DNA of 64,000 nucleotides from assembly GCA_003104935.1 (NCBI GenBank), contig PQAE01000002.1, positions 67,527 to 131,526 of the forward strand, in the 5' to 3' direction. The stretch comes from Parcubacteria group bacterium. GTDB lineage: Bacteria > Patescibacteriota > Patescibacteriia > UBA1558 > GWA2-36-10. The position numbers and the translations under genes were made by a program. The notes under the pieces are model-generated. The model searched no databases and was not told the origin of the DNA. It was given only the letters and a program-made list of their open reading frames with translations. Below are positions 5,944 to 49,040 of this stretch, one piece after another (within the stretch, counting starts at the first letter, position 1; each line of letters opens with the position of its first letter).

Positions 5944-7098
5944 TTATTTTTTAAAAAAATCCCCTAATATATTTTCTTTGACGTATTTATATGCCTTATC
6001 TGGTTGGAATACTGTAGGTTGTTTTGGATTGTCAATAAATAGAATATTATCTTTAATGTTATAAAAATATTTTTTAACTCCCTTAATAGTTGCCTTGATA
6101 TCAAAATTCTTGAATGTATCCTTGGTTATATCTGTCACCTCTTCGATTGTCTTTCCTTTAAAATGACCCTGCTCTAATGCGTGCCTCGCCGCTGAAATGA
6201 ATGTTTTGTCTGCTGTTTCTAAACTTTTCCCAATAACTTTCTCCTCTCCACCCACACTAGTATCAAGAGTCGTTAACAACAAGGAAAATAATCTTGTGTT
6301 TGTCTTTTGTTCAGGGTCATAAAGATTGGCCACGTTATCAACAAAATCACCCAAGCTATTTGTAACAAACCCTGAAGCTTTACTGACGGTGCCACCCTGA
6401 TTACAAGTATAATTAGCCGCATTATGTAGGAATGAAGAAATATCTCTCTGACCACTAGCCATATCTACACCAAACTGACCATAAAATTTTCCATCAGGAT
6501 CCGTATATTTTACCGGATTATCCCCAGCATAACTATAACTATTCAGGTTTTGTGGATTAGCCAGTTGTTCTTGGACACTTCTACCATAGGCCTTGGTAAA
6601 ATCCTGGTCATCATTAAGTATAAAAAGTGCCGGATCTATAGAATAAAATCTCCCTGTAGTATTATCTAAATACCTGGCTCCATAGTATTGTAGATTGTTT
6701 TCTTTATCTAATTCTTTACCGGTAAACTTCTTGGTATTATCAATAGTGGAGTTAAGAGTCTTGGCTTGACCATAGGGGTCATAATCATTGGTTTCAAGTA
6801 TATTTCCTTGACTGTCGGTAATAATGGTGGGAGAACCGAGGTGATCGTTTATGTCATACTGTGTGCTAGTATTACTGACTGTGGATATCTTTTGATCACC
6901 AATATAGATATTGACCTTAAAATTACCGTCTTTATCTATTTCAAAGTACTTATCAATATATTTAGTCTGATCGGTAGTGACATTTTCATAGTGACCAGAC
7001 TCGGTCGCAAAGATTGGTTGTACAAATAAAAAAAATAACAGGAATAATACTATTATAGCAAAAATCCTGTTGTTTGTGACTTTTCTTCTGCCAGTCAT
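5944..7098 (-). CDS. secreted short Rhs-core polymorphic toxin (signal peptide, Rhs repeat-associated core, variable C-terminal toxin domain)
   Basis: 384 aa with an N-terminal hydrophobic signal/TM segment. DINDHLGSP...YDPYGQ...FTGKELDKENNLQYYGARYLDNTTGRFYSIDP...NLNSYSYAGDNPVKYTDPDG is the Rhs/YD core with the terminal DPxG site. About 185 aa of unassigned C-terminal domain follow it. Confidence 0.7.
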   Translation of the reverse strand: MTGRRKVTNNRIFAIIVLFLLFFLFVQPIFATESGHYENVTTDQTKYIDKYFEIDKDGNFKVNIYIGDQKISTVSNTSTQYDINDHLGSPTIITDSQGNILETNDYDPYGQAKTLNSTIDNTKKFTGKELDKENNLQYYGARYLDNTTGRFYSIDPALFILNDDQDFTKAYGRSVQEQLANPQNLNSYSYAGDNPVKYTDPDGKFYGQFGVDMASGQRDISSFLHNAANYTCNQGGTVSKASGFVTNSLGDFVDNVANLYDPEQKTNTRLFSLLLTTLDTSVGGEEKVIGKSLETADKTFISAARHALEQGHFKGKTIEEVTDITKDTFKNFDIKATIKGVKKYFYNIKDNILFIDNPKQPTVFQPDKAYKYVKENILGDFFKK

Positions 7099-7272: not shown

Positions 7273-7370
7273 TGGAGCCGGTGAGAGGACTTGAACCTCC
7301 AACATATGGTTTAAAACGAAACCAGGGCTTCGTCATCCACCACTGCTCTACCAATTGAGCTACACCGGCC
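7273..7370 (-). tRNA. tRNA-like gene with a ~21-nt insertion in the anticodon loop; anticodon unassigned (possible intron-containing tRNA or pseudogene)
   Basis: Read on the minus strand, G+GCCGGTG TA GCTC-AATTGGTA-GAGC A GTGGT[28 nt]ACCAT ATGTT GGAGG-TTCAAGT-CCTCT CACCGGC T CCA. The acceptor, D and T arms are canonical and CCA is encoded. The anticodon stem GTGGT/ACCAT encloses 28 nt instead of 7. Confidence 0.55.
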
Positions 7371-35187: not shown

Positions 35188-35397
35188 ATGACACTGACTT
35201 CTCAGCGCAAGGGTGAGATCGCTCTCGCTGCCATCAAGTTGCAGGTGCAACGCGAAGGCATCCGGAACTTCAAACCCCGGGCCATGAGGCGTCGGATGGG
35301 CGAGTTTGCCAAGCTCACCGGATTCTCGGTGGACGAGCTCGAACAGTTCTTTCGGGAAATGTTCCAGGAGGTCCTGGACGAAACTCTCGCGAAGTAA
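35188..35397 (+). CDS. hypothetical small protein (GC-rich islet)
   Basis: 69 aa, ~58% GC, with a strong RBS. Followed by GC-rich hairpins. Confidence 0.4.
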   Translation: MTLTSQRKGEIALAAIKLQVQREGIRNFKPRAMRRRMGEFAKLTGFSVDELEQFFREMFQEVLDETLAK

Positions 35398-43076: not shown

Positions 43077-43143
43077 ATTATTTATTTAAACCTTTCTACC
43101 CCCCCCCACCATCTCCACCTTACCAAGGGGGAGGGAGAGGGGG

Positions 43144-46801: not shown

Positions 46802-47183
46802 GGTTTTCCAGATTATCCTGTAAAACTAATTGTCCGGCCTGAGTGTAAGCCCGGATCAGCCCCCCTACTCCCAGTTTAGTGCCGCCAAAATAGCGCACTA
46901 CCACTAACAGACAATCCATAATATCTTTTTTCTGCAATAAATATAATAATGGCTGGCCGGCCGAACCGCCGGGTTCGCGGTCATTATGAAATTTTTCCCG
47001 AATGTATCCATCTTCGTCAATACGGTAGGCATAAACAAGATGAGATGCATCACTGTATTTTTTTTCCAATTCAGCCAATTGCGCTTTTGCCTGTTCAATT
47101 GAAGTAATATAAAAAACCAAGCTCAAAAACTTGGACTTTTTTACTATTATTTGTCCTTGGCCCAAACCGATTATTTTCAACAT
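46785..47183 (-). CDS. IMPACT/YigZ family protein
   Basis: KSKF...YAYR...EPGGSAGQP...RYFGGTKLGVGGLIRAY matches the UPF0029 signature. Confidence 0.75.
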   Translation of the reverse strand: MLKIIGLGQGQIIVKKSKFLSLVFYITSIEQAKAQLAELEKKYSDASHLVYAYRIDEDGYIREKFHNDREPGGSAGQPLLYLLQKKDIMDCLLVVVRYFGGTKLGVGGLIRAYTQAGQLVLQDNLENHGAGN

Positions 47184-47196
47184 CCGGTCTGCTGTT

Positions 47197-47343
47197 CTAA
47201 ATCCTATTTTTCCGACGCAACAAGCTAATACCGACTAAAATCAGAAGCACTCCCCAGGAATAACCCCAAAAACTGCCGCTGATCCAACCGGCTTGCTGGG
47301 CAATGGAAAAGGCCCCGAGGACAATAAGCAATACACCAAACAT
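47197..47343 (-). CDS. small hydrophobic peptide (48 aa; below the ORF-track cutoff)
   Basis: MFGVLLIVLGAFSIAQQAGWISGSFWGYSWGVLLILVGISLLRRKNRI. A TTGGAT-18-TATAAT promoter precedes it on the minus strand at 47366-47395. Confidence 0.3.
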   Translation of the reverse strand: MFGVLLIVLGAFSIAQQAGWISGSFWGYSWGVLLILVGISLLRRKNRI

Positions 47344-47740
47344 AGAAAAAAATTAATACTTATAGCTCCATTATACAATATCGGGCTGATAAAATCCAAT
47401 AAAAAATAGTAGCTCTGAGGCTAACGATAAGCACCACGGAATCTGATCAGAAGATCAGAGACTGAGGTTTTGCACTCTGCCCGGCAAAAAGGAGGGGCAT
47501 CGCCGGCCAAAGACTTAACGTTAGCATCAGAGCTACCATTGACTAGGCACTTTATCACCGGATTTTTACTTTGTCAAGAAAATAAGTATACCCTAGTGCT
47601 CCCGCGCTACGGGATTCATTATCTATAGTGGTCAATAGAACCACGTCCCCGCCTGCCATGCCAAGACACTGGCGGGCAGGTCGCCCCGTAGCGACCCCGT
47701 TAGACGCACTGGCGTCTAACAAGGTTAATATAAACAAAAA

Positions 47741-47765
47741 GGGACCCGCCCGAAAGCGAGTCCCC
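47741..47765 (-). terminator. intrinsic terminator downstream of the acidic small ORF
   Basis: On the minus strand, GGGGACTCGC-TTTC-GGGCGGGTCCC followed by TTTTTG. Confidence 0.45.
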
Positions 47766-47789
47766 TAAAAAAGCAGCGATTGACCGCTG

Positions 47790-47978
47790 TTAATCGTCCC
47801 AGTCCTCAGGATAGTCGTCATCTTGTTCCGGCCAACCAAGGTTCAAACCATGTAGCTCGTGGTCTTCGTCGACAGGATCTTCATCGCCGTCAACCGAAGG
47901 AATCTCTAGAGGGATCAACTCGCTGTCTTCCTCATCATCGCCGGGGAAAAAATAGATCCCAAACACAGGGATACACAA
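47790..47978 (-). CDS. hypothetical highly acidic small protein (GC-rich islet)
   Basis: 62 aa with a TTG start preceded by GGAGGTG. About 45% of the residues are Asp/Glu. A terminator follows. Confidence 0.35.
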   Translation of the reverse strand: MCIPVFGIYFFPGDDEEDSELIPLEIPSVDGDEDPVDEDHELHGLNLGWPEQDDDYPEDWDD

Positions 47979-48157
47979 GTGAGCACCTCCATCAGGTTTT
48001 GAAGCCAGTCTGAATCAGGACTTAAGAAAATAACAAACAACACTAATTATTGCTCAAAATGAATACCCTGTCAATTAAAACCGATAATAAAAAACGACAT
48101 TTTTTGCCAAAAAAAACAAATAATGGTATATTCAAAATGGGTTTTTACCCGAAATAT

Positions 48158-48656: not shown

Positions 48657-49040
48657 GGGGATGTCTTTATTCGATGTCAGATGAAGTGATTTGTGGCAAG
48701 CGGAGTCTGCTATCTCCTTAAAAAGGCTAACAAAATAAGTGCCAAAAACTTATTTGCCAAAGTCCAGGGACTGTTCGCAGTTCCGAGACTGGCCCCAGTT
48801 TTAGCATAAATTTGCTGAAACCATCTCTAGCCAGGTTCGCCTGAGACGGGCTACGGGGTGTCATTTATCGGGATAGAAATAATTCGCGCCGACCGGATTA
48901 TTTCGAAACTAAGATCGGCTGGATGATCAGTGTTTTGCTAATTTTTAAGCTGATGATCGAGAACCAAAAAATTAACTAAGCTTGTAGAAATAAATCAGGA
49001 CATTTGTCAGACAGGGGTGTAATACCCCTCATCTCCACCA
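48657..49040 (+). ncRNA. ssrA: tmRNA (transfer-messenger RNA)
   Basis: 5' GGGGATG..TTCGATG and 3' AGGGG-TGTAATA-CCCCT CATCTCC A CCA. The acceptor stem has the G3-U70 Ala identity pair and a discriminator A. A candidate tag reading frame ends ...GCAGTTCCGAGACTGGCCCCAGTTTTAGCATAA (AVPRLAPVLA*). It is adjacent to smpB. The T-loop is atypical. Confidence 0.65.

Follow-up and report, generated by a model that had tools for sequence, protein, structure and literature searches.

A predicted small RNA gene with an anti-Shine-Dalgarno-like loop upstream of smpB in Patescibacteria

Small RNAs (sRNAs) of Firmicutes such as RsaE and RoxS target Shine-Dalgarno (SD) sequences through unpaired C-rich motifs; the canonical anti-SD sequence, carried by the 16S rRNA itself, is CACCUCCUU. 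In the alpha-r14/NfeR1 sRNAs, an ultraconserved anti-SD motif, CCUCCUCCC, is exposed in unpaired loops on stems that differ between the RNAs, and mRNAs are silenced by occlusion of the ribosome-binding site (RBS) (PMC10746234). The 6C RNA binds the G-rich RBSs of several mRNAs through its C-rich apical loops without the help of Hfq or ProQ (PMC6486639). For Patescibacteria, or the candidate phyla radiation (CPR), ultra-small bacteria with tiny genomes and few regulators, no regulatory RNA was found in the literature searched. To our knowledge, these bacteria have no Hfq. Here we analyse a 64-kb stretch of the genome of a Parcubacteria group bacterium (contig PQAE01000002.1, positions 67,527 to 131,526; hereafter, the window) and report that the gap between yigZ and smpB contains a predicted sRNA gene with an anti-SD-like sequence in its apical loop. 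Our reading, which we hold with a confidence only slightly above even, is that this is an independent sRNA gene and that masking of SD sequences by loop pairing is its most likely mechanism.

The predicted gene is unannotated, independent and constitutively signalled, being provided with a promoter and a U-run of its own (Table 1). The segment 47400-47541 folds on the minus strand with a minimum free energy (MFE) of -68.3 kcal/mol (z-score -9.38), and the MFE structure accounts for 32% of the ensemble. Folding of the plus strand is weaker by 12.6 kcal/mol, as would be expected if the minus strand uses G-U pairs. In the predicted fold, a long closing stem of 19 bp (GGUAGCUCUGAUGCUAACG / CGUUAGCCUCAGAGCUACU) is combined with a side hairpin, UCUGAUC-UUCU-GAUCAGA, and with an apical stem of 7 bp that carries the 12-nt loop; the U6 run occupies positions 47406-47401. 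The sequence CCCCTCCT occurs once in the window, namely, in this loop. No match to the sRNA was found in Rfam 15 at E <= 10. In a preliminary description of this DNA, 47400-47735 had been treated as a single structured stretch of about 330 nt, either an unannotated non-coding RNA or a decayed gene. The area 47395-47740 indeed folds far beyond chance (z-scores -7.2 for the plus strand and -8.2 for the minus strand); however, as a strong promoter (47577-47549) is situated inside the stretch, the latter is a cluster of hairpins plus a separate RNA of about 140 nt. Thus, the suspected non-coding RNA is retained for the 3' part on the minus strand, which has covarying counterparts in relatives, whereas the single unit of about 330 nt is not.

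An identical 10-kb stretch was found in a Logan assembly of run SRR5381729. The nearest species-level genomes are Komeilibacteria- and Buchananbacteria-like metagenome-assembled genomes, the best smpB being 66% identical. Since comparison of the gap with 21 smpB loci of GTDB species by blastn and nhmmer yielded no similarity, we turned to motifs and synteny (the loci of relatives are designated L001, L002 and so on). Reading the corresponding slot revealed a promoter-equipped RNA with GCCCCTCCTT in L002, L027 and L024, and a motif scan extended the set to L002, L003, L024/L025, L027-L030, L031, L034, L116, L117-L119 and L120. The chance expectation for an identical 10-mer GCCCCTCCTT is about 1e-3 in 800 bp, both strands considered. 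In total, nine related lineages have a promoter-equipped RNA in the slot (L002, L003, L024, L027, L031, L034, L116, L117 and L120), and in eight of them, all except L117, it is also equipped with a terminator. At the smpB-lia site of L001, L032 and L115, the RNA is absent.

The counterparts are always on the lia strand and always flanked by the lia-yigZ operon on one side and, on the other, by smpB or by mfd inserted there. The TTGACA plus TGn-TAnnnT architecture was observed upstream of the RNAs in L002, L003, L009, L031, L034, L116 and L120; all checked counterparts have a perfect TTGACA -35 box, and most have the TGn-TAnnnT -10 box. The distance from the -10 box to the loop is 52-64 nt, with the exception of L031 and L034, where it equals 115 nt. 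The 3' end is formed by a stem plus a U-run or by a separate terminator. Like the window RNA, the RNAs of relatives gave no Rfam match. As judged from these sequence features, the counterparts appear to define an sRNA family of Patescibacteria marked by an anti-SD loop, which would be new, being absent from Rfam and from the literature searched. As a counterpart is found at the same spot in related bacteria, the window RNA is probably a regulator of translation and not a part of a decayed gene or of a defence island. In viral contigs, neither the family pattern nor the window-specific loop pattern had any match; the 16-mer GGCGCCCCTCCTTGCC was present in 13 of them, in all cases as chance matches in GC-rich contigs, none of them full-length to the model.

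A related arrangement is seen in L009, a more distant Patescibacteria genome mislabelled as 'Gammaproteobacteria'. There, downstream of rplT (6300-6560), two long hairpins stand in tandem, each with a GCCCCCUCCUUC loop, preceded by one TTGACA-17-TAGACT promoter and followed by one terminator. This pair looks like a sibling or a duplicated form of the loop module.

For seven family members aligned with MAFFT, a full-length covariance model, R1, was built without the window copy. The alignment forms one long hairpin of 32 pairs, with compensatory changes in 12 of them; 94% of the cells are paired, compared to 29-49% when the partners are slid, and none of 500 shuffles matched the observed covariation. 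R1 recovered L024 and L027, which had not been in the seed, with 54-55 bits (E 1e-11). The model of the apical hairpin, R2, was based on an ungapped alignment of 12 hairpins from 11 loci, the window copy included. In this set, the loop core CCCUCCUU is invariant, and double changes occur at all eight stem pairs (82% of the cells paired, compared to 34-49% in slid controls). The covariation score is 0.93, while the controls reached at most 0.33 and none of 500 shuffles attained 0.93. When R2 was applied to 1.1 Mb of sequence, including about 70 unrelated bacterial YigZ loci, only the 12 known sites scored above 15 bits; the control loci came from a metagenome scan with a YigZ alignment, which returned only distant YigZ (at most 52% identity) from unrelated bacteria. 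The 28.8 bits assigned by R2 to the window copy hold by construction, as this copy belongs to the seed.

The loop differs from the canonical anti-SD sequence at one position. It is complementary to AAGGAGG(G/U)G and hence is the exact complement of the strong SD (AAGGAGG...) held by a minority of genes in the clade. Neither GGAG nor GAGG was found upstream of any of the 17 called genes near the window locus, and 57 of 64 core genes of relatives lack an SD, the exceptions carrying full AAGGAGG or GGAGGTG. SD usage in the clade is bimodal: the core genes have AT-rich leaders without SDs, and the SD-bearing minority often consists of small or hypothetical genes. Examples of SD-led open reading frames (ORFs) in the window are one of 69 amino acids (aa) at 35188 on the plus strand and one of 120 aa at 360 on the minus strand.

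A strong SD precedes the variable ORFs beside the sRNA in four of eight families, compared to seven of 64 core genes (Fisher's p 0.016), a comparison that was made post hoc and on small numbers. The SD-led ORFs of the slot are orf139 of L024, orf108 of L032/L115, orf179 of L117 (with the start corrected) and an acidic ORF of the window, described below. The energies predicted for duplexes of the loop with the canonical strong SDs AAGGAGGUG and AAGGAGGGG range from -17 to -23 kcal/mol; for the RBS of the acidic ORF, the value is -13.4 kcal/mol. Since the latter is among the few SD-bearing ORFs of the window, it is a candidate local target of the sRNA.

If this reading holds, the long and very stable hairpin RNA with its one side branch would expose UGCCCCUCCUUU in the 12-nt apical loop; the loop would pair with the SD region of SD-led mRNAs, acting either in trans or on an ORF that is adjacent to the sRNA or transcribed together with it, and such pairing would block binding of the 30S subunit, so that the SD would be masked. 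Target prediction within the 64-kb window was uninformative. The best loop duplex predicted in the window (-18.2 kcal/mol) involves a G8 run in the thyA-folA spacer, at about 43077-43106 on the minus strand; this run is 23 nt upstream of the folA start (43076), not at SD distance.

Several observations weigh against SD masking by a member of this family. The full AAGGAGGGG occurs in no mRNA of the window, the target search having covered the window and the short loci. Ten stem pairs are invariant in the family, which hints at a protein partner rather than at pure base-pairing. With the filters off, R1 aligns to the window only by its positions 42-61, at 47484-47503 (6.4 bits, E 1.2), and the window copy lacks the invariant lower stems of the family, AAGCUAU/AUAGCUU and GUCAG/CUGRC, having instead a different stem of 19 bp. 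Thus, its homology rests on the position, strand, promoter type and loop hairpin. Moreover, no close relative of the window lineage is present in the collections (the best YigZ is 68% identical), and the full-length covariation thus comes from the RNAs of other lineages.

Compared to the Komeilibacteria-like Patescibacteria family modelled by R1, the window RNA occupies the same smpB-lia slot on the lia strand and shares the promoter architecture, the terminator or U-run, the long-hairpin design, and the apical hairpin with the CCCUCCUU loop, in the register common to 11 other hairpins; its additional side hairpin has parallels in L024 and L027. On the other hand, it has no full-length match to R1, and the AAGCUAU...GUCAG lower stems are missing. 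Judging by these features, the window RNA is a divergent positional counterpart of the family, presumably a member only in part.

The invariant stems, together with the neighbourhood of translation genes, also make a protein-binding role the main rival of SD masking. According to this alternative, the RNA would be a protein-binding or ribosome-associated decoy, in which the mimic of the 16S 3' end titrates a factor recognising the anti-SD tail (for example, a nuclease or a factor of maturation or initiation), or else a protein would bind the conserved lower stems; we regard either form as unlikely, but deserving attention. The ten pairs of AAGCUAU/AUAGCUU and GUCAG/CUGRC do not vary in seven lineages while the adjacent pairs covary, so the sequence constraint on the stem exceeds what a scaffold needs. 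The gene is situated among smpB, ssrA, infC, rpmI, rplT and yigZ of the IMPACT family, and an SD that could be masked is absent from most genes of the clade. However, the window and L009 copies retain the loop without the conserved stems, and hence it is the loop that seems to be the common functional element; besides, in the loci examined, no candidate partner protein co-varied in presence with the RNA.

Alternatively, the RNA could act in cis, as a leader, an attenuator or a transcriptional insulator of the lia-yigZ operon or of the variable ORF, with the loop sequestering an SD of the same transcript. In L117, where a terminator is lacking, the RNA continues straight into AAAGGAGGTGAAATC-GTG of the 179-aa ORF, so a cis role may apply there; in L024, the terminator itself is formed by CACCUCC...GGAGG and is followed by an SD-led ORF. 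Elsewhere, the arrangement points away from cis regulation: the RNA is terminated in the window and in L002, L003, L027, L031, L034, L116 and L120, a separate conserved lia promoter follows, lia48 has no SD to be sequestered, and the L009 copies stand in a different context, after rplT. As a general explanation, the cis role thus appears improbable.

To return to SD masking, the hosts mostly dispense with SDs and keep a few very strong ones, which raises the testable possibility that genes led by an SD are a class with a regulation of its own. A further-reaching version would make the sRNA a dedicated class-wide repressor of SD-led ORFs, mostly small and variable or accessory, the sRNA itself being encoded at a hotspot where such ORFs accumulate. 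We consider this version rather doubtful; if true, it would mean that genes which are accessory or recently acquired are silenced at the level of translation, by competition with the anti-SD of the ribosome.

Table 1. Features of the region between yigZ and smpB (positions in the window)
Feature	Position	Strand	Details
Predicted sRNA gene, ~140 nt	47401..47543	-	19-bp closing stem, three-way interior, U6 tail; inverted repeat I1
Apical 12-nt loop UGCCCCUCCUUU, anti-SD-like	47488..47499	-	closed by 7-bp stem CCGGCGA/UUGCCGG
Predicted sRNA promoter TTGACA-17-TGaTAAAGT	47549..47577	-	promoter scan 10/12 plus TG; extended -10 (TGn), perfect -35
lia48, small membrane protein of 48 aa	47197..47343	-	first gene of the conserved lia-yigZ-ygjP operon
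lia48 promoter TTGGAT-18-TATAAT	47370..47399	-	directly after the sRNA U-run; read from the sequence
Orphan acidic ORF of 62 aa	47790..47978	-	TTG start, GGAGGTG 7 nt upstream
Acidic-ORF promoter TTGACA-17-AATAAT	48046..48074	-	promoter scan 11/12
Pair of intrinsic terminators in tandem, downstream of the acidic ORF	47739..47789 (47789-47774, 47766-47739)	-	terminator scan
Lineage-specific cluster of 4-5 GC-rich hairpins	47590..47735	-	56% GC; no promoter or U-tract of its own

The gap is preceded by dcd, ygjP, yigZ and lia48 on the minus strand and followed by smpB, ssrA, infC, rpmI and rplT on the plus strand, ssrA (transfer-messenger RNA, tmRNA) being located at 48657-49040. For smpB, TTG 48050 is the first codon of the mechanical ORF, and a protein of 185 aa is given in the public gene call. 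Given a TTGCCA-17-TATATT promoter at 48104-48132, ahead of ATG 48158, and the alignment to relatives, whose SmpB has 150 aa, the latter codon is likely the real start, and hence the gap is about 110 bp longer than stated before. From the yigZ start (47183) to this ATG, the longest ORFs comprise 77, 62, 60, 52 and 48 aa, in agreement with the initial remark that no long ORF exists upstream of smpB (none above 77 aa in 47184-48157).

The gap consists of four separate minus-strand units with their own signals, not of one 330-nt RNA. Promoter-like and terminator-like sites number nine and nine, compared to 3.2 and 2.4 in shuffled sequence. The GC content of 47400-48010 is 50.1%, not about 57% as had been claimed, with the window mean at 43.9%; only the hairpin cluster stands out. 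The hairpins quoted in the preliminary description are present: GTTAGACGC-ACTG-GCGTCTAAC at 47699-47720, TCTGATC-AGAA-GATCAGA at 47442-47459 and CCTGCC...GGCAGG at 47652-47680. In the whole window, Rfam 15 at the gathering threshold matched the tmRNA and one tRNA and nothing else. The proposed cmscan check of the gap (47150-48100, E <= 10) was run and gave noise and sub-threshold terminator-like matches at 47696-47826, with no Rfam family matched.

If the segment were a decayed or frameshifted gene, or a neutral spacer with hairpins and an acidic ORF arisen by chance, remnants of protein similarity or an intact gene in relatives would be looked for. The six-frame translation of 47400-48050 matched no protein at E <= 10 (8000 word-sharing candidates from 5.8 billion proteins), and the slot of relatives holds different content, with no intact gene. 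This variability of the slot could also fit a spacer, as could the acidic ORF, which has no homologue and is uncalled in the identical public contig, and the hairpin cluster, which has neither a promoter nor a homologue. However, the fold z-scores range from -4 to -9, the region has three near-consensus promoters with matched terminators, the loop hairpin is conserved across lineages, and the codon score of the acidic ORF is typical of real genes. We thus consider decay or neutrality very improbable.

The 48-aa peptide had been described together with its TTGGAT-18-TATAAT promoter, and both are there. lia48 matches PF18917 (LiaI-LiaF-like_TM1) with 33.8 bits at a cut-off of 27, residues 2-42 aligning to positions 3-42 of the 42-position profile, and homologues of 61-77 aa occupy the same position in relatives; a 24-nt block around and after the lia -10 box is 92% identical in L027-L030. 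Hence lia48 is a conserved core gene heading the lia-yigZ-ygjP operon, and not the cargo of an island.

The acidic ORF has the TTG start, the GGAGGTG and the terminator ascribed to it before, but the reported 45% of Asp/Glu is too high: its product has 23 acidic residues of 62 (37%; only residues 14-62 reach 47%) and no Lys or Arg, the acidic tail following a hydrophobic N-terminus of 13 residues. The terminator scan yielded a 12-bp stem plus TTTTTGTTTAT and a 6-bp stem plus CTTTTTT. The in-frame codon score, 0.37 bits per codon, falls at the 64th percentile of fragments taken from real genes; all 3000 off-frame fragments score lower, although the Asp/Glu content helps the ORF here. No homologue was found in a word-indexed search of 5.8 billion clustered proteins or by exact-sequence look-up, and HMMER against 1.84 billion representatives gave one low-complexity match (14 stretches in a 1249-aa protein), which was judged to be compositional. 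In other lineages, the slot contains mfd, a PfkB kinase, or ORFs of 108, 139-153 and 179 aa. Thus, the content of the slot turns over, and the acidic ORF is probably a small gene specific to its lineage.

A role of the acidic mini-protein as a DNA mimic or an anti-defence factor, carried on an island adjacent to the tmRNA, now seems scarcely credible to us. Such a role agrees with the charge (37% Asp/Glu and zero basic residues), the own expression signals, the slot content differing between relatives, and the strong SD, which would fit foreign origin in a genome poor in SDs. Still, nothing beyond the charge points to such a function. The known DNA mimics Ocr and ArdA are folded proteins, whereas this orphan may be unstructured, its single-sequence AlphaFold model, built with no alignment, having no secondary structure (predicted local distance difference test 56, predicted template modelling score 0.14), and no match was found in Pfam, PHROGs, PADLOC or PDB. 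As for the island, the segment lies upstream of smpB and not at the 3' end of ssrA, and there is no integrase-sized ORF, no flanking or attachment (att) repeat, and no phage gene nearby.

A type I toxin-antitoxin pair was also considered for the acidic ORF and the sRNA, and rejected: the ORF encodes a mainly acidic protein and not a hydrophobic toxin, there is no overlap between it and the sRNA, complementarity is confined to the SD, and relatives without the acidic ORF still have the sRNA.

The hairpin cluster has fold z-scores of -4.2 on the minus strand and -5.1 on the plus strand. It showed no similarity to other parts of the window or to any fetched locus, no coding similarity and no Rfam match; it could be the read-through 3' untranslated region of the acidic ORF, it could shield the sRNA promoter as a barrier, or it could be a relic. 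It is also not similar to a large structured segment seen in L115 (about 1690-2160) and L031 (about 2400-2745). That segment comprises 330-470 nt, is ORF-free and GC-richer, and has the sRNA/smpB side on one flank and the lia promoter on the other, probably on the minus strand of the locus, with terminators at about 1690-1730 in L115 and 2395-2425 in L031. It is closed by GGUGGUU...AACCACC and has common blocks GCGGACAAAAGGG..CCCAGACYUGUAGCUAAGGCGGA and AGCCGAAGCUC. Between the two loci, nine pairs are changed on both sides, and no Rfam match was found. The segment may be a second unannotated large RNA.

In the slot beside smpB, L032 (2131-2457) and L115 (about 1140-1465) have a Cys-rich 108-aa ORF with a perfect SD and no Pfam match. 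Elsewhere in the window, the minus strand of 7273-7369 contains a tRNA gene (Rfam, 54.9 bits) with 28 nt enclosed by the anticodon stem in place of a 7-nt loop (GGAUGACGAAGCCCUGGUUUCGUUUUAA), reported by ARAGORN as 'tRNA-???'; its appearance suggests a short intron or an extended anticodon arm.

For annotation, the lesson is that an 'empty' 870 bp turned out to be neither a pseudogene nor an island. A covarying family with its own promoter and a loop resembling the anti-SD would offer a concrete way to put post-transcriptional control in this phylum to the test.

Among the described systems, RsaE/RoxS would share with the family discussed here the unpaired motif directed at SDs, but the fold and the phylum are different, and there is no Rfam match. 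6C RNA of Actinobacteria resembles the tandem pair of C-rich loops in L009 in its architecture; however, the loop here is a specific copy of the anti-SD, CCCCUCCUU, and not a run of C, and it is carried by a long single hairpin of about 100-140 nt, again with no match to Rfam. Alpha-r14 (NfeR1) differs in having three loops, compared to one in the typical copy here, and has no similarity to these RNAs in sequence or covariance models (Rfam, E <= 10); moreover, the host here belongs to Patescibacteria, whose core genes are largely devoid of SDs, and the function is a predicted one. At the same time, the design is the one known from alpha-r14 and from AbcR1/2 of alpha-rhizobia: the loop core CCCUCCUU is invariant while the stems covary freely, and in L009 the loop is present in two tandem copies.

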